This document shows positions 2,855-27,427 of a DNA stretch of 32,367 nucleotides, piece by piece. How positions within the stretch are numbered: the stretch's first letter is position 1; every line of letters starts with the position of its first letter. This stretch comes from Chiloscyllium plagiosum. Taxonomy: Eukaryota. The stretch is from the NCBI RefSeq assembly GCF_004010195.1, contig NW_025213354.1:1-32367 (forward strand), read 5' to 3'. The notes beneath the pieces were generated by a model. It worked only from the letters and a program-made list of their open reading frames with translations, did no database searches and was not told where the DNA came from. The position numbers and the translations under genes are program-made.

Positions 2855-2926
2855 AAGTTTGTGTGAAGATTTGTAGCTCGGGTGCTCGTTGTTGTGGTTC
2901 TGTTCGCCGAGTTGGAAGTTTTTGTT

Positions 2927-2966
2927 GCAAACGTTTCGTCCCCTGGCTGGGCGACATCATCAGTGC
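2927..2966 (-). ncRNA. Minimal type I hammerhead ribozyme motif
   Basis: Reverse complement reads GCA-CTGATGA-T-GTCGCC-CAGCCA-GGGGAC-GAAAC-GTT-TGC. Confidence 0.65.
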
Positions 2967-3117
2967 TTGGGAGCCTCCTGCGAAGCGCTTCTTTGATGTT
3001 TCCTCCGGTGTTTATAGTGGTCTGTCCCTGCCGCTTCCGGTTGTCAGTTTCAGCTGTCCGCTGTAGTGGTTGGTATATTGGGTCCAGATCGATGTGTTTG
3101 TTCCAGGAGGCTCCCAA

Positions 3118-3157
3118 GCACTGATGATGTCGCCTCGCCAGGGGACGAAACGTTTGC
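3118..3157 (+). ncRNA. Minimal type I hammerhead ribozyme motif
   Basis: GCA-CTGATGA-T-GTCGCC-TCGCCA-GGGGAC-GAAAC-GTT-TGC. Confidence 0.65.
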
Positions 3158-3511
3158 AACAAAAACTTCCAGCTCGGCGAACAGAACCACAACGGCAATA
3201 TTGTGAAGAATGTAGTTCTACATCAGATATTTCCCAGTGGGGGGGAGGGGCTCAGCAGTAAGGGAATGTAATTTGTAATAGCAACTGAAGGCAATGGCTT
3301 TAACCATTACAATGTTTCACTGGAGAAAATTGCAGCTAATCGAGTAGTGGGAGTGTGATGAGCAGTTTGATAACTGAGTAATGAAGAGGTATGACGGGGA
3401 GGTAGAGTTGGGCAGTGTCAGTGTACATGTTAAACCTCACACTGTGCTTTTGGACAAAGCCACCTCCTGGCAGTATGTCGGTGAGAAACAGGAGGGACCA
3501 AGGAGAGATCC

Positions 3512-3832
3512 TTAGATTCCCTACAGTGTGGAAACAGTCCCTTCGGCCCAACAAGTCCACACCGACCCTCCGAAGAGGAACCCATCCAGACCCATTCCCC
3601 TACGTTTACCACTGATTGATGCACCTAACACTACAGGCAATTTAGCATGGCCATTTCACCTAACCTGCACATCTTTGGAATATGGGATGAAACCGGAGCA
3701 CTCGGAGGAAACCCACGCAGACACGGGGAGAATGTGCAAACTCCACACAGTCAGTTGCCCGAGTCTGGAATCGAACCTGGGTCCCTGATGCTGTGAGGCA
3801 GCAGTGCTCACCATTGAGCCACCGTGCTGGCC
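3512..3832 (-). mobile_element. HE1-like SINE, full length
   Basis: The reverse complement has a tRNA head (CACGGTGGCTCAATGGTGAGCACTGCTGCCTCACAGC, GGTTCGATTCC), the conserved core and a GGGCCGAAGGGACTGTTTCCACACTGTAGGGAATCTAA tail. Confidence 0.92.
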
Positions 3833-7674: not shown

Positions 7675-7756
7675 CGACGAGAGTGGGATTCGAACCCACG
7701 CGTGCAGAGGACAATGGATTAGCAGTCCATCGCCATAACCTCTCGGCCACCTCGTC
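7675..7756 (-). tRNA. tRNA-Ser (anticodon GCT), 82 nt, near-intact
   Basis: Reverse complement is GACGAGGTGGCCGAGAGGTTATGGCGATGGACTGCTAATCCATTGTCCTCTGCACGCGTGGGTTCGAATCCCACTCTCGTCG. It forms a full cloverleaf with long variable arm, A and B boxes and discriminator G. It has four substitutions against the recalled vertebrate consensus, one making a C.C mismatch in the variable arm. Confidence 0.92.
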
Positions 7757-8207
7757 AGGCGTAGGATGAGCCCTCTGATCTTATGAACAAGCGAATTGCG
7801 TACATTATGCACACCAGAGATATTTCTCCTTGGTATTGGTGAAATAATAAATAGCACAGTATGGTTCCAAGAGTATCGTCTGACCTCTGGGTGTGGGACA
7901 AGCGCACTCAGACTGTGACACTCTGCTCACAGTGATCAGAGCAAGAATGAAGAAATGAACAATGGATTAGCAGTCCATCGCCTTAACCTCTCGGCCACCT
8001 CGTCAGGCGTGGGATGAGCCCTCTGATCTTATGAACAAGCGAATTGCGTACATTATGCACACCAGAGATATTTCTCCTTGGTACTGGTGAAATGATAAAT
8101 AGCAGAGTATGGTTCCAAGAGTATGGTCCGACCTCTGGGTTGTGGGGCAAGCGCACTCCCACTGTGACACTCTGCTCACAGTGATCAGAGCAAGAATGAA
8201 GAAATGA
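7711..8207. repeat. Tandem duplication, 248/249-bp unit (7711-7958 and 7959-8207)
   Basis: Both units start ACAATGGATTAGCAGTCC and end GCAAGAATGAAGAAATGA, with scattered substitutions. Confidence 0.95.
7959..8004 (-). pseudogene. 5' half of tRNA-Ser(GCT), truncated duplicate
   Basis: Reverse complement is GACGAGGTGGCCGAGAGGTTAAGGCGATGGACTGCTAATCCATTGT, then unrelated sequence. There is no T-arm or B-box. Confidence 0.9.
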
Positions 8208-18456: not shown

Positions 18457-19943
18457 GTGTGTGCTCCCTCAGTACTGACTCTTTAACAGTGTGTGCTCCC
18501 TCAGTACTGACTCTTTAACAGTGTGTGCTCCCTCAGTACTGACTCTTTAACAGTGTGTGCTCCCTCAGTACTGACTCTTTAACAGTGTGTGCTCCCTCAG
18601 TACTGACTCTTTAACAGTGTGTGCTCCCTCAGTACTGACTCTTTAACAGTGTGTGCTCCCTCAGTACTGACTCTTTAACAGTGTGTGCTCCCTCAGTACT
18701 GACTCTTTAACAGTGTGTGCTCCCTCAGTACTGACTCTTTAACAGTGTGTGCTCCCTCAGTACTGACTCTTTAACAGTGTGTGCTCCCTCAGTACTGACT
18801 CTTTAACAGTGTGTGCTCCCTCAGTACTGACTCTTTAACAGTGTGTGCTCCCTCAGTACTGACTCTTTAACAGTGTGTGCTCCCTCAGTACTGACTCTTT
18901 AACAGTGTGTGCTCCCTCAGTACTGACTCTTTAACAGTGTGTGCTCCCTCAGTACTGACTCTTTAACAGTGTGTGCTCCCTCAGTACTGACTCTTGAACA
19001 GTGTGTGCTCCCTCAGTACTGACTCTTGAACAGTGTGTGCTCCCTCAGTACTGACTCTTGAACAGTGTGTGCTCCCTCAGTACTGACTCTTGAACAGTGT
19101 GTGCTCCCTCAGTACTGACTCTTTAACATTGTGTGCTCCCTCAGTACTGACTCTTTAACATTGTGTGCTCCCTCAGTACTGACTCTTTAACATTGTGTGC
19201 TCCCTCAGTACTGACTCTTTAACATTGTGTGCTCCCTCAGTACTGACTCTTTAACATTGTGTGCTCCCTCAGTACTGACTCTTTAACATTGTGTGCTCCC
19301 TCAGTACTGACTCTTTAACATTGTGTGCTCCCTCAGTACTGACTCTTTAACATTGTGTGCTCCCTCAGTACTGACTCTTTAACATTGTGTGCTCCCTCAG
19401 TACTGACTCTTTAACATTGTGTGCTCCCTCAGTACTGACTCTTTAACATTGTGTGCTCCCTCAGTACTGACTCTTTAACATTGTGTGCTCCCTCAGTACT
19501 GACTCTTTAACATTGTGTGCTCCCTCAGTACTGACTCTTTAACATTGTGTGCTCCCTCAGTACTGACTCTTTAACATTGTGTGCTCCCTCAGTACTGACT
19601 CTTTAACAGTATGTGCTCCCTCAGTCCTGACTCTTTAACAGTGCTGTGCTCCATCAGTCCTGACTCTTTAACAGTGCTGTGCTCCCTCAGTACTGACCCT
19701 TTAACAGTGCTGTGCTCCCTCAGTACTGACTCTTTAACAGTGCTGTGCTCCATCAGTACTGACTCTTTAACAGTGTGTGCTCCCTCAGTACTGACTCTTT
19801 AACAGTGTGTGCTCCCTCAGTGCTGACTCTTTAACAGTGCTGTGCTCCCTCAGTACTGACTCTTTAACAGTGTGTGCTCCCTCAGTACTGACTCTTTAAC
19901 AGCGCTGTGCTCCCTCAGTACTGACTCTCCAACGGTGCTGTGC
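18457..19943. repeat. Minisatellite, about 46 copies of a 32-bp unit GTGTGTGCTCCCTCAGTACTGACTCTTTAACA (33-bp variants at the right end)
   Basis: Exact 32-bp period with no spacers. The unit contains the palindrome TCAGTACTGA. Confidence 0.99.
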
Positions 19944-20610
19944 ACCTTTCTAATCTTCAGGTCTTCCTCAATGGTCTCCCTCCTTGAATGTGAGTCTGCC
20001 CTTCAAATTGTGCAACATCGCCTTCCTACTGTCCTCTGTAAATGCGGAGTTGCCTATGAAATGACCCTCCAACAATCCATGCTCCCTCAGTTTTGCCTCT
20101 TTAAGCATACAGCACACCCTCAGTTCTGGCTGAGATGTTGTCCCTTGTATGTGCTCATGTCTCTGACTACACACTGTTTTCACTTAAAAGCTTGATCTCT
20201 CCTGACTGAGACAGAGCTGACACCAAGTTAGGGCCTTTTATTTCTTTGATTTTATTTGTTTGTTTGCTTTATTTATTGTCACGAGTAATTTGTTATAATG
20301 CGTGATTGACAGATTTAGGAGGTTGTCACTCGGCTTTTTACTGAATACATATGTTTGTATTTTAAAGTTGTTGCTGTTTGCTACTTCATTTCGTTATGAA
20401 TTCTCAAAATATTTTCCCTTCTCAGTGTTGTTTAATGTGATGCTGTATAACTCGATAAGATTGTGAACAAAGTTATGCAAACATGGGTAAATTTCTGTTG
20501 TTTAAAATAATTACCACCCTGGAGTTCTGATGTTCTTCCTGGTCTCTTCCTGAAGAATCGCTTTGGCATCAGGTTGAGGTGTGTCATTGTGATTATAGGG
20601 TGTTAGCGAT

Positions 20611-21131
20611 GTTTGAGAAGATTTGAAGCCCAGGTTAATGGTAAGTATGTAAGTTTGCTCGCAGTGCTTGAAGGTTAGTTTTCAGATGTTTCGTCACCAT
20701 AATAAGTAACATCATCAGTGAGAGTCTCCAGTCTCACCTCTCGATTTATAGGTCTTGGTTTCTTAAAGGTGGGTGATGTCATTTCTGGTTCTTTTTTTCA
20801 AGAGAAGATTGATAGGATCTAAATCGATGTGTTTATTGATGGAGTTCTGGTTAGAATGTCATGCCTCTAAGATTTCTTGTGCGTGTCTTTGTTTCGCCTG
20901 TCCTGGGATGTGTGTGCTGTTCCAGTCAAACTGGTGTCCTTCTTTGTCTGTATGGAAACTAGTGAGAGTGGGTCATGTCTTTTGGTGGCTAGTTGGTGTT
21001 CATGTATCATGATGGCAAGTTTCCTGCCAGTTTGTCTAATGTAGTGTTTTTTTTACAGTTCTTGTATGGTACTTTGTAAGTTTTTCCTGTAGTATCTAAT
21101 GGATCCTTTTAGTTCATGGGTTGCTGTTTAA
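20611..21131 (-). mobile_element. Penelope-like element 3' portion: GIY-YIG endonuclease pseudogene and terminus with hammerhead
   Basis: Reverse complement gives KHYIRQTGRKLAIMIHEHQLATKRHDPLSLVS..FDWNSTHI..EILEA*HSNQNSINKHIDLDPI. The terminus resembles 2855-2885. Confidence 0.88.
20682..20721 (-). ncRNA. Hammerhead ribozyme motif, partly degenerate
   Basis: Reverse complement reads TCA-CTGATGA-T-GTTACT-TATTAT-GGTGAC-GAAAC-ATC-TGA. Stem I is TCA/TGA and stem II is 6 bp with GU pairs; the stem III palindrome is broken (ATC). Confidence 0.5.
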
Positions 21132-21557: not shown

Positions 21558-23308
21558 TCATCAAAGAGAACATGCTAGAAGAACTGAAAGGTCTGAAGGT
21601 GGATAAATCACCTGGACCAGATGGACTACACCCCAGTGTTCTGAAGGAGGCAGCTGAAGAAATAGTGGGGGTATTGTATCAAAATACACGAGTATCACAC
21701 TTTTTATCAAAATACTTAGTGGTGATCTTCCAGGAATCACTGGAATCAGGGAGGGTTCCAGAGGACTGGAAATTTACTGATGTAACCCCCCTGTTTAAAA
21801 AGGGAGTAAGGCAAAAAATGGGAAATTACATGATAATTAGCGTGACCTTGGTTATTTAGCCTGACCTTGGTTATTTAGCCTGACCTTGATTATTTAGCCT
21901 GACCTTGGTTATTTAGCCTGACCTTGATTATTTAGCCTGACCTTGGTTATTTAGCGTGACCTTCGTTATTTAGCCTGACCTTGGTTATTGGTAAGATTTG
22001 GAGTCCATTGTGAAGGATGAGATTTCTAAAAACTCGAAAGTGCATGGTAAAATAGGGCAAAGTCAGCATGGTTTCATCAAAGGGAGACATTGCCTGACAA
22101 ATCTGTTAGCATTCTTTGAGGAGGTCCAATGGATGTTATCTACATGAACGTCAAGAAGGCCTTTGACAAGGTGCCAAACAGGAGGCTACTGAGTAAGATA
22201 AGGGTCCATGATGTTAGAGATAAGGTGCTAGCATGGATAGAAGCTTGGCTATCTGGTAGAAAGCTGAGGGTGAGGATAAAAGGGTCCTTCTCAGGATGGT
22301 GGCCAGTGACAAGTGATGTTCTGCAAGGGTCAGTGTTGGGACCATAACGTTTCATTTTATACATTACCGATCTAGATGAAGGAACTGAGGGCATTCTGGC
22401 TAAGTTTGCAGAGGATACAAAGATAGGTAGAGGGACAGGTAGCGTTAAGGAGGCAGGGAGGCTGCAGAAGGATATGGACAGGTTAGGAGAGTGGGCAAAG
22501 AAGTGGCAGATGGAGTACAACATGGGAAAGTATGAGGTCATGCAGTTTGGTAGGAAGAATAGAGGCATGGACTGTTTTCTAAATGGAGAGAACATTCAGA
22601 AATCTAAAGGGCAAAGAGACTTGTGTGCTCTAGTCCAGGATTCTCTCAAGGTAAACTTGCAGGTTGAGTTAGTAGTTAGGAAGGCAAATGCAATGTTGGC
22701 ATTTATTTCAAGAGGATGAGAATATTAAAGCATGAACATACTTCTGAGACTTTATAAGGCTCTGGTCAGACCACATTTAGAGTATTGTGTGCAGTTTTAG
22801 GCCCCATATCTCAGAAAGGATACACTGGCCCTGGAGTGGGTCCAGAGGGGTTCATGAGAATGATCCCAGACAAGAAAGGTTTCACACATGAGGAATGCTT
22901 GAGGACTCTGGGTCTATACTCAATGGAGTTTAGAAGGATGGTGGGGGATCTAATTGAAACTTACAGATTACTGAATGGTCTGGAGAGAGTGGAAGTTGGG
23001 AAGATGTTTCCATTGGTAGAAGAGATTAGAGTAAAGGGAAGACCTTTTAGAATGGAGATAAAGAGAAACTTCTTCAAGCAGAGAGTGGTGAATCTGTGGA
23101 ATTCATTGCCGCAGAACTCTGTGGAGGCCAGGTCATTGAGTCTATTTAAGACGGAGATAGACAGTTCTTGGGTATCGAGGGGATCAAGGGTTACGGAGAG
23201 AAAGTGGGAGAATGGGTTTGAGAAACCTATCAGCCACTATTGAATGGCAGAGCTGACTCAATGGGCTGAATGGCCTAATTTCTGTTCCAATAGTCTTATG
23301 GTCTTATG
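21558..23308 (+). mobile_element. 5'-truncated CR1 LINE: RT pseudogene through the 3' UTR
   Basis: LKVDKSPGPDGLHP, VPEDWK..VTPLFKKG, KAFDKVP, QGSVLGP, KFAEDTK (YADD-type motif mutated, about 22402), LYKALVRPHLEYCVQF and RVVNLWNSLP. Ends in (TCTTATGG)n. Contains stops, frameshifts and internal insertions. Confidence 0.97.
21837..21988. repeat. 8 x 19-bp tandem repeat TTAGCCTGACCTTGGTTAT inside the CR1 RT
   Basis: Units start at 21837+19n (n=0-7), with a few substitutions. Confidence 0.97.
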
Positions 23309-23381: not shown

Positions 23382-25370
23382 TCAGATGGCTTTTGTAAAA
23401 TTGTCTTGAATATTATCCTTCTCTTGCCATCATGTCGTTTAGTTTATCATCAGAAATTGATCTGAAATGAACAATCCAGAGATGTTAGAAAAGCTCGGAA
23501 ACAAAGTGGGCTAGTGATCTAATTTGGGGAAATGGTTATGCCACATTTGGTGTTAAAAATTGGCGAGCAGAGGAGGAAACACAACCTCAGGGAAAAAGGA
23601 GTTATATATTTTTCCTATTTGTTAAATAACGAGTTGGGATATAAAAAAAAGGCCATTAATAAAATCAGACTTTGTGGTGTACATGAGAATTCATTATTGC
23701 TTTATTCCAGTCCCATAGCAGTCTAATGTCAAATGTTTCATCGACTGAAATTTCAATCCTTGCTAGAGTGTCACGTCAGCACTGAACTTTTTCATTCCAC
23801 AACATTTAATGGACTCTGCGTTGCTCATTGCTTTTAAAACCTGAAAGAATGATAAGAGGTTATGTATGCAAATATATGCAAACATATGCTCAAATAAACA
23901 GCCTTAAATACAGTTCTGTCCCAGGATCATTGAAGAAGAAATTGATCTCCCACAGGATAGTATAATTCAATACAAATGGATGGTTTTGTTTAAGTACATT
24001 TTAATTCATGTTACTAACACCAGGAATAAATCTGTCAGGGTACACTATACACTTAAAAGCTTCTAATTCCTTCATTGCAGAAATTTAATTGAAAAAGAAA
24101 TAGTATCAGAAATGTTCGAAAAATAAATAGCATGTTTTATTCTTTGCATTGCTTCGTTCCCAGGCTTTGATGGCAAGCTCATTATACCTGAAAAGGGAAC
24201 GGTGATTGGTCTTGTTGAGCTACTGCGATTGGCACAATGTTAGTACGTCCACACAGCTGGACCACCAACCCTCATTTTTAAAATGAGTCAACAGCCATGC
24301 ATTCCCCAGTCTGAATGGTTTGTCTCTTGAAGGAAACTTGGAGATCGTGATGTTGTAAATGAGCTTTCTTGGTGTAAAAGATTGGAAGGCAGGGCGCTGC
24401 TGTTAAAGCAGAACCAGGGATTAATTCTGCTGAGTTACTGAGTTGGAAGTTTCCTGTCCAGTGTCCTGCCCGCTTCCTTCTTGTGAACAAACTGCCTGCT
24501 GTACCTGAGACATTTGGCTGATTTTTATTAGGAATCAGATTTGCAGAAGTTTTGTGGAGCTTTTCTCTGTGTGAGGCCATACCGATATCCTGCTGCTCGC
24601 TTCCTTAGCTATACACAGCTTACGGCAGAAGGACTCACCAATGCTGGGGATCCTGGGATTTTCAGCGCCAGTTTAAATTCTGCCAGCCAGGAACTGCCCT
24701 TCACATGGTGCAGGTAGTGGGAGGGGGTTTTAACAGAAATACTTCTCAGGGTACATCAGTGGCATGGGCGATACTTCATTCCAGATACAAGTACTTTCAT
24801 ACACATCGTGCTATTTTGCATCAGTACCTGTCTGATCGATTATCATTGTAACCGCAGCTACAGGAATCAAACGACACAGACCACCCATCCTTCGTGTTAT
24901 CCCATATTAGAAACCTGTCAAAGGGAAGGTTACTCTTTCCCTCGTGTCTTGCCATTGTTCTATGAGGGAGCATTATAGGTTGGAAAGACTTCAAAAGCTT
25001 TAATGCAGTAGCAGAGAAGGAAAAGAAAAGTAAAATAGCTGTCACTGTTTCTATCAGCAACCAGGGGCCACTTGCCTTTCAAACAACAACCATCAATGAG
25101 TGACAAACTGCCAGGCTTTGTGTCTGCAGGAAGTAGCAAGACAACATGGAAATACTGTGAGCCTTTAACTTCTGAAAGAGGCGACAATGTGCAAAACCTT
25201 AACACAAGGCAGACATACCCTGAGCATCCAAGTTGACACAAAGTGAGCAAGGGTGAAGAGAGCAATCGAGAATCCCTGAGATGCACCCTGGTTGAATTCA
25301 GGAGGTGAGTGCTGTTCATTGAAAGCTGTAGGTGCACACTGGAGTGCAGCATTAAAGTGCAGAACTATAT

Positions 25371-27427
25371 TAGAACATAGAAGGTAGAACATTACAGCAC
25401 AGTACAGGCCCTTCGGCCCTCGATGTTGCGCCACGCTGTCATACTAATCTGAAGCCCGACCCATCTACACTATTCCATGTCCATACGCTTGTCCAATGAC
25501 GACTTAAATGTACTTAAAGTTGGCGAATCTACGACTGTTGCAGGCAAAGCATTTCATACACTTATGACTCTCTGAGTAAAGAAACTATCTCTGACATCTG
25601 TCCTATATCTATCACCCCTCAATTTAAAGCTGTACCCCCTCGTGCTCGCCAATACCATACTTGGAAAAAGGGTCTCCCTGTCCACCCTATCTAACCCTCT
25701 GATTATCTTATATGTCTCTATTAAGTCACCTAGGAGAAAGTGAGGACTGCAGATGCTGGGGATCAGAGCTTAAAAATGTGTTGCTGGAAAAGCGCAGCAG
25801 GTCAGGCAGCATCAAAGGAGAAGGAGAATCGACGTTTCGGGCATAAGTCCAAAACGTCGATTCTCCTTCTCCTTTGATGCTGCCTGACCTGCTGCGCTTT
25901 TCCAGCAACACATTTTTAAGCTCTATTAAGTCACCTCTCAACCTTCTTCTCTCTAACAAAAACATCCTCAAGTCCCTCAGCCTTTCCTCGTAAGACCTCC
26001 CCTTCATACCAGATAACATCCTAGTAAATCTCTTCTGCACCCTTTCCAAAGCTTCCACATCCTTCTTATAATGCGGTGACCAGAACTGTACACAATACTC
26101 CAAGTGTGGCCGTACCAGAGTTTTGTACAGCTGCAGCATAACCTCATGGTTCCGGAACTCGATCCCTCTATTAATAAAAGCTAAAACACTGTATGCCTTC
26201 TTAACAACCCTGTCAATCTGGGTGGCAACTTTCAAGGATCTGTGTACCCGACCTTAGTGTCGTTTGCAAATTTACTAACCCACCCTTCTACACCCTCCCC
26301 TCATCCAGGTCATTTATAAAAATGACGAACAGCAGTGGACCCAACACCGACCCTTGCAGTACACCACTGGTAACTGGACTCCAGGATGAACATTTCCCAT
26401 CAACCACCACCCTCTTCTTCTTTCAGCAAGCCAATTACTGATCCAAACTGCTATATGTCCCACAATCCCATTCCTCCGCATTTTGTACAATAGCCTACTG
26501 GAGGGAACCTTATCGAGCGCCTTGCTGAAATCCATATACACCACATCAACCAGTTTACTCCCATCTACCTGTTTGGTCACCTTCTCAAAGAACTCAATAA
26601 GATTTGTGAGGCACAACCTACCCTTCACAAAACCGTGCTGACTATCCCTAATCAAATTATTCTTTTCTAGATGATTATAAATCCTATCTCTTATAACCTT
26701 TTCCAACACTTTACCAACAACTGAAGTAAGACTCACTGATCTATAGTTACCAGGGTTGTCTCTACTCCCCTTCTTGAACAGGGGAACCACATTTGCTACC
26801 CTCCAGTCTTCTGGCACTATTCCTGTAGACAATGACGATTTAAAGATCAATGTCAAAGGCTCGGCAACCTCCTCCCTGGCTTCCCAGAGGATCCTAGGAT
26901 AAATTCCATCCGGCCCAGGGGACTTATCTATTTTCACACTCTGCAGGATTTCTAATACCTCTTCCTTGTGAACCTCAATCCCACCTAGTCTAGTAGCCTG
27001 TATCTCAGTATTCTTCTTGACAGCATTGTCATTTTAAAGAGTGAATACTATCGAAAAATATTCATTTAGTGCTTCCCGTATCTCCTCTGACTCCACACAC
27101 AACTTCCTTGATTGGCCCTAATCTTACTCTCGTCATTCTTTTATTCCTTAAATACCTATAGAAAGCCTTAGGGTTTACCCTCATCCTATCTGCCAACAAC
27201 TTCTCATGTCTCCTCCTGGCTCTTCTGAGCTCACTCTTTAGGTCTTTCCTGGCTACCTTGTAACCCTCAAGCGCCCTAACTGAGCCTTCACATCTCATCC
27301 TAACATAAGCCTTCTTCTTCCTCTTGACTAGAGATTCCACTTCCTTCGTAAACCACGGCTCCAGCGCTCCACAGCCCCCTCTCTGCCTGACAGGTACATA
27401 CGTATCTCGGACACTCAGGAGCTTCCA
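25371..27427 (-). mobile_element. 5'-truncated CR1/HER1-type LINE ORF2 pseudogene with 3' tail, an internal deletion near 26250 and a nested PLE insertion
   Basis: ORFs 27062..27340, 26314..26937 (KIDKSPGPDGIYPR..VPEDWRVANVVPLFKKG..QHGFVKGR..DFSKALDKVP) and 25726..26235 (LYKTLVRPHLEYCVQFWSPH). The catalytic motif reads FANDTK at about 26253-26270. The tail is (TTCTATG)n-like. Confidence 0.97.
25732..25920 (-). mobile_element. Miniature fold-back PLE-derived insertion: perfect 73-bp inverted arms (25765-25837 and 25852-25924) with a 16-bp TSD
   Basis: The arms are exact reverse complements around a 14-nt loop. CTCTATTAAGTCACCT occurs at 25716-25731 and 25921-25936. The sequence is homologous to the termini of the 11617-13738 element. 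Confidence 0.93.

Follow-up and report, generated by a model that had tools for sequence, protein, structure and literature searches.

Within the window, by which we mean the whole 32,367-nucleotide stretch of Chiloscyllium plagiosum DNA analysed here, a fragment of ORF2 from a LINE that we take to be of the CR1 type occupies positions 25383-27200 of the minus strand (RVT_1 match, E = 1.9e-12; the fragment was read only as far as 27200). It is interrupted by a 189-bp insert, 25732-25920. The insert lies between the two copies of a 16-bp TSD (25716-25731 and 25921-25936), which are identical at 16 of 16 positions, extend no further on either side and mark a target of 62.5% A+T. The arms of the insert's palindrome, 25765-25837 and 25852-25924, pair over 73 bp with zero mismatches, and their last 4 nt lie inside the right TSD copy, whose first four nucleotides (25921-25924) thus also continue the arm and form a 4-nt microhomology. 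The folding z-score of this hairpin is -19, and none of 200 shuffles was equally stable. An earlier note on this DNA had described the perfect arms, the TSD and the 4-nt overlap, and all of these are borne out.

That note's further observation, that the insert breaks a CR1 ORF, also holds. Excising the insert together with one TSD copy makes the CR1 frame intact again across the empty site (LRGDLIETYKII), and the joint expected of an empty site, from 25715 to 25921 with a single TSD copy (a skip of 205, with 16 letters that fit both sides), is present in all four of the four sequencing runs. The reads that contain this joint come either from empty alleles or from other CR1 (LINE) copies, probably the latter. 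Elsewhere, the host ORF had already been disrupted by stops and frameshifts. The unique flank at 25250-25413 is unchanged in two runs of organism A; among the contigs and reads displayed, none crosses the insert's own junctions, which leaves the insert without independent confirmation at its own locus.

The insert carries parts of a Penelope-like element (PLE). At its left end, 33 bases found on the left arm only (25732-25764, minus strand; 37 nt if the four microhomologous bases are counted), to which the earlier note gave no name, are a PLE 3′ tail that matches the 3′ end of an older copy at 13738. Position 25732 is the 3′ end of the element, since hundreds of contigs terminate at 25732/25733, with unrelated, AT-rich flanks. 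Next to the tail, 25765-25842 (minus strand, in the element's sense) is the 3′ part of a pseudo-LTR and is 85% identical to 11620-11698. The tail-less inverted arm, 25847-25920, lies on the plus strand, and its first four bases, 25847-25850, can be read from either arm (4-nt overlap). With its layout, TSD, family and the position of its join all read directly from the DNA, the 189-bp insert is a real, dead and extremely 5′-truncated miniature of the known PLE insertion pattern, best explained as made in one step, at insertion, from an endonuclease-bearing Penelope-like retrotransposon.

Palindrome tip, hammerhead remnant and age

On the minus strand, 25831-25850 is the remnant of a hammerhead ribozyme with stem II, the GAAA box and the GUC site. 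Its CUGAUGA half is absent, and the palindrome turns around inside the hammerhead, as the earlier note had recognized. The same note had described a 14-nt loop. Pairing in fact runs inward past the 73-bp arms for five more pairs, to 25842/25847, two of them mismatched (C25838·A25851 and G25841·T25848), so that the true tip is a loop of 4 nt, 25843-25846. This is the loop of stem II, of which 25839-25842 is the 3′ strand and 25847-25850 the equivalent of the 5′ strand. In the older copy, the corresponding position reads as stem II of a complete hammerhead, and RNA reads continue from 25843/25847 into the CUGA half that is missing from the insert; the older copy's whole hammerhead and these reads together identify the insert's centre of symmetry as the stem II loop. 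Active hammerheads have both a CUGANGA and a GAAA box. No CUGANGA...GAAAC motif occurs within the insert, and with half of the catalytic core missing the insert is no ribozyme on its own. An Rfam scan returned no hammerhead match; its miRNA and snoRNA matches were hairpin-shaped and below the gathering scores, and were rejected as matches of shape.

The two tip changes are transitions at 25848 (where the family letter is C) and 25851, one of them at a CpG. Under even decay, two changes within the inner 5 of 78 pairs have p = 0.004, or 0.024 if CpG sites are given tenfold weight, and it is more likely that these changes date from the join, or that the tip mutates faster.

Zero mismatches were rejected as proof of youth, since zero differences in 85 compared positions permit up to 1.8% change per copy. 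This corresponds to 2.5 × 10^7 generations at 7 × 10^-10, the mutation rate given in PMC10587355 for another species, the epaulette shark. The insert is younger than the host LINE and than the other inverted copies in the window, whose arms diverge by 3-24%, and it departs from the majority letter once in the tail and twice at the tip. ‘Relatively young’ is a fair description of its age; the earlier note's ‘very young’ goes beyond these figures.

The Penelope-like family and its other copies

The older, longer copy of the same family lies on the plus strand at 11602-13753 (about 2.1 kb), with a TSD of about 15 bp (13/15 identical). It consists of a tail-less inverted arm (11617-11726) with a whole hammerhead at 11706-11682, and a 3′ pseudo-LTR with a decayed hammerhead at 13623-13646 and a tail that ends at 13738. 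What links the insert to this copy is the DNA identity of the ends (77-86%), namely 85.5% to 11620-11695 and 76.5% to 13634-13738. The ORF of the older copy is decayed, with remnants of RT and GIY-YIG, and it had no Pfam or PDB match. Translated with X at stops, it aligns over 445 aa with protein P0008 at 33% identity (E = 4e-66), and P0008 matches both RVT_1 and GIY-YIG. Nineteen relatives of this ORF were found among 1544 candidates, the best three being from Chiloscyllium punctatum (52-55%). On the antisense strand of the older copy, a potential 3′-terminal hairpin of 8-9 bp at 11716-11717, just upstream of the hammerhead core, is stronger than stem II.

The family is very abundant: over the arm, contig depth adds up to about 3-5 × 10^5 times the depth of the unique flank, a ratio that is not a copy number. 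The DNA pattern of the family had 0 matches in viral and metagenome contigs, and a protein scan of the viral contigs found no relative.

EN+ PLEs are described as an inverted, 5′-truncated copy beside a direct copy, with a 30-40-bp tail at one end (PMC8557442, PMC3846280; for the tail also PMC11167929). The family has RT followed by GIY-YIG, a hammerhead in the pseudo-LTR, an adjacent inverted and 5′-truncated copy, a one-sided tail of 30-40 bp and a TSD in an AT-rich target. The insert shares its head-to-head arms, one-sided tail, TSD and junction palindrome with the published EN+ unit (Arkhipova et al. 2013, PMC3846280; Craig et al. 2021, PMC8557442), but differs in that it is only 189 bp long and has no ORF, and that its junction palindrome is stem II of the hammerhead. 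Minimal hammerheads of the same motif type are reported in metazoan PLEs, as opposite-strand pairs 100-700 bp apart (Cervera and De la Pena 2014, PMC4209133), whereas the insert is missing half of the catalytic core. Two other classes were considered and rejected. Retrozymes are defined as tandem units each with a complete type I hammerhead (10.64898/2026.07.22.740005), and the insert is a single head-to-head unit with half a core rather than a non-LTR retrozyme. In a class II MITE, terminal inverted repeats would reach both ends; here, 33 nt at the left end are unpaired.

Two further fold-backs in the window allow comparison. The element at 2855-3193 belongs to a second hammerhead family and has arms at 2891-2980 and 3104-3193, each with a whole hammerhead, a 123-nt spacer, and a one-sided extension of 36 nt that reaches an N gap. 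Its arms differ at 3 of 90 positions, two of which are adjacent in the stem II loop, and they possibly derive from two template RNAs. An old relic of a related family, at 11363-11516, has arms that are 76% alike and a 46-nt spacer. Only its longer arm contains a decayed GAAA-GUU-like motif (11439-11446; weak, as 45 of 2000 shuffles were as good), and the short arm breaks off some 24 nt 3′ of that motif. The relic has the general PLE layout, but no symmetric turn at stem II, and does not support the recurrence that the earlier note had read from it. As this relic, with its 46-nt spacer, has drifted to 76%, homogenisation of arms by gene conversion is not needed for the insert's zero mismatches, though it may have contributed.

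Elsewhere in the window, the minus strand of 20620-20950 contains a further hammerhead motif (20718-20688) and looks like another PLE 3′ end. At 14412-14981, two copies of another dispersed repeat form a head-to-head pair (about 570 bp, 78% self-complementary), with further copies at 3512, 17637 and 31883. The minus strand carries a tRNA match of 60.9 bits, and part of a second copy of it, at 7675-7756 and 7948-8004, inside a 248-bp duplication, and tandem arrays with units of 32-33 bp and 19 bp lie at 18329-19960 and 21796-22023.

Priming and joining of the two arms

The insert probably arose from two separately primed cDNAs, one per target strand, that were joined through the 4-nt self-complementarity of stem II. 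The GIY-YIG nuclease would cut both target strands, with an offset of 16 nt between the nicks. A cDNA would then start at the outer edge of the tail, primed by the plus-strand 3′ end at 25731, while the other target 3′ end, pairing by 4 nt with RNA at the inner edge of the tail, would prime a second one. Both cDNAs would be short antisense copies of the same region, taken from two RNAs or from the two pseudo-LTRs of one RNA. Stem II is self-complementary, and a cDNA ending in its 5′ strand could pair with a cDNA ending in its 3′ strand; imprecise pairing followed by fill-in would give a near-symmetric hairpin with two changes at its tip. Of the 4-5 bases at the join, two depart from the family letter, which would leave G25847, C25849 and C25850 to carry this pairing. 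The role of stem II would be that of a microhomology, requiring neither ribozyme catalysis nor stalling.

In the twin priming of L1, which Ostertag and Kazazian are said to have described in 2001, both nicks reportedly prime and the cDNAs join by microhomology, leaving one part inverted. In L1 the two parts reportedly copy different stretches of one RNA, whereas both parts of the insert copy the same stretch. An experimental counterpart is Poseidon of Anolis, studied in vitro by Frangieh et al. (2024, PMC11167929). There, reverse transcription starts at two sites that delimit the tail, each target strand is cut and extended, again with these start sites, and insertion proceeds without any need for hammerhead cleavage. 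Poseidon and the insert have AT-rich targets in common and, on our reading, the other features too; no homology between primer and start site is reported for Poseidon, in contrast to the 4 nt at the insert's tail-less end, and the main text of that study does not discuss inverted arms. Among the papers listed in our literature search, we found none that ties PLE inversions to stem II or to two primers.

Related loci provide the evidence that separates two primers from one. The best 80 of 506 loci were kept and all were screened for inverted repeats and hammerheads. Nine were read closely and six could be evaluated, L008 and L031 being cut by contig ends and L049 having another structure; L017, L044 and L064 are among the loci with inverted repeats elsewhere, which were not counted as 5′ arms. 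Five of the six evaluable loci (L013, L047, L053 and L062, and more weakly L030) carry the tail on their short inverted arm, while the ORF belongs to the arm without a tail. The tail is shared by L013, L047, L053 and L062, with pairwise scores of 31-37 of 45 against a background of 3-10; support is weaker for L030 (16-17), and the tail arm of L003 could be assigned to neither side. TSDs are exact in L013 (16 bp), in L030, L047 and L053 (13 bp each) and in L062 (7 bp, weak). As each arm of these five loci has sequence that is absent from the other, they cannot have come from the self-copying of one cDNA, and the division of tail and ORF between the arms argues, from sequence comparison, that both target strands prime. 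The tail-less arm also ends at the same place, +69 from the G of GAAA, in the insert, the older window copy, L030, L047 and L053. Judged by BLAST ends, the central joins overlap by 5, 4, 4 and 2 nt in L013, L030, L008 and L062 (four of the six resolved cases), and have gaps of 4 nt in L047 and 9 nt in L053. In L008, where 2-61 is inverted relative to 2414-2473, the end of the inverted arm coincides with the start of the CUGA box (-20), and the join has the 4-nt overlap. A caveat is that the discriminating loci belong to other families in other animals (amino-acid identity 40-50%) and that carrying an ORF was the basis of their selection.

The strongest competitor is a snap-back, which is possible but unlikely: a single cDNA would have run from 25731 through stem II, folded its 3′ end on the 4-bp stem, copied itself and joined the target by the 4-nt microhomology. 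One such event would explain the exact symmetry at the stem II loop, and for the 189-bp copy alone it predicts a sequence identical to that expected from two primers. In the older copy, a 3-bp stem II snap-back can form at the end of the antisense strand. The minority alleles at 25814 and 25821 that are common to both arms are explained as well, although two RNAs of one source would be expected to give them too. In the asymmetric cases in the window (the older copy, the second family and probably the relic), the tail-bearing arm is the longer one, which counts against two primers and which a snap-back allows too. On the other hand, a snap-back leaves unexplained why the second arm stops at the tail boundary and is impossible for L013, L030, L047, L053 and L062, and the hammerhead is read through in most copies (649 loose ends listed versus 21 reads over the tip). 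Precedents exist: PMC3846280 reads an inverted-junction palindrome as self-priming, and the ‘snap-back’ 5′ junctions of R2 (Zhang et al. 2024, PMC11371274; also PMC11331408), in which the 3′ end of the cDNA primes on the cDNA itself before it joins the target, correspond to the mechanism proposed in the earlier note. In R2, as reported in PMC11371274, they are a minor junction class without the fixed tail boundary seen in the insert.

Self-copying as the PLE route to inverted arms thus fails for the five related loci and leaves the fixed +69 boundary unexplained, and with these precedents it is not an under-described mechanism either. Nor is the proposed stalling at the ribozyme hairpin supported, since the tail-bearing cDNA had gone past the loop and reached the 5′ strand of stem II, a stem of little stability (about -2.4 kcal/mol for the DNA of the older copy). 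What stands of that interpretation is the PLE origin of the insert, made at insertion, its turn inside the hammerhead and its joining to the target through a 4-nt microhomology, while stalling, self-copying, novelty, recurrence and the labels ‘very young’ and ‘MITE-like’ are not supported.

Other explanations place the origin of the symmetry elsewhere. It is quite unlikely that a longer head-to-head insertion, with the hammerhead whole in both arms, was later trimmed at its centre, through a deletion between the two stem II repeats or the repair of a cruciform tip. Longer forms are present in the window, and a small central asymmetry is said to be the signature of centre-break repair (reportedly described by Cunningham in 2003). 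A deletion would, however, increase the perfection of a palindrome rather than reduce it, the 123-nt and 46-nt spacers in the window persist untrimmed, and no longer allele was seen, in reads that could not show one clearly. Microhomology-mediated deletions in PLE copies are nevertheless reported (PMC3846280). Very unlikely, too, is a join of two cDNAs by four untemplated bases (25848-25851), with the stem II position a coincidence and pairing without a role: two of these four bases are off-family, and L047 and L053 have gaps of 4 and 9 nt, yet the two differences are both transitions (one at a CpG), and the arm ends are placed symmetrically around the loop. That the insert is a fold-back artefact of assembly or library, or a MITE that amplifies itself, is hardly credible. 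In favour of such a reading, no displayed read spans the insert's own junctions, but the exact TSD, the one-sided tail that ends at the family's 3′ end, the two tip mismatches and the restored host frame all speak against both, and the ends of the insert are not terminal inverted repeats, as those of a MITE would be.

Stem II as a joining place

A broader version of the two-primer reading can be formulated, in which each target strand primes at one of the tail-bounding start sites and stem II is a preferred place of pairing, so that palindromes centred on stem II recur independently in very many copies. We regard this extension as doubtful. Other inverted arms have their inner ends at -66, -20, -509, -670, -265, -251, about -81 (L062), and -40 and -43 (window). 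None of these nine falls in stem II (-1 to -12), although the test is weak, as this set cannot include symmetric stubs. A search of the 80 related loci for short fold-backs centred on a hammerhead found none of this kind, and one unrelated palindrome, in L049. Other copies of the family have left-to-right joins at unrelated positions.

At 25848, contigs reach 0.77, 0.36 and 0.32% of their depth at 25821, which may be an effect of alignment; if real, the tip depth is about 1,000-3,000 times that of the unique flank, which is not a copy number, and the other listed joins reach at most 724 depth units, or about 40 times the flank. In the RNA run, 21 reads cross 25848, 18 of them with the family letter, and 424 + 225 listed loose ends continue into an intact hammerhead, making the tip-crossing share 3% at most. 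The tip-crossing records could be real stem II joins elsewhere, ties between the reference arms, or library fold-backs. Four left-to-right joints were displayed, out of a set with more than 800 further ones, and their arms end at +25/+36, +18/+26, -1/+45 and -10/+37; two of the four thus have one end in stem II, a point in favour of the earlier note. In two other fold-back joins, from 25847 to 25888 and from 25839 to 25896, one of the arms ends within stem II. The former has a depth of 470 and 306 in organism A and of 12.7 in organism B, and may be amplified in A.

As a single insertion, the 189-bp copy is a dead by-product of a known layout, and its value is as a clean footprint of PLE integration. 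Priming by both target strands would account at once for the inverted arm and for a tail at one end only, and is testable in the existing in vitro system. If stem II is a hotspot, an RNA structure kept for the ribozyme would shape the palindromes that litter the genome.
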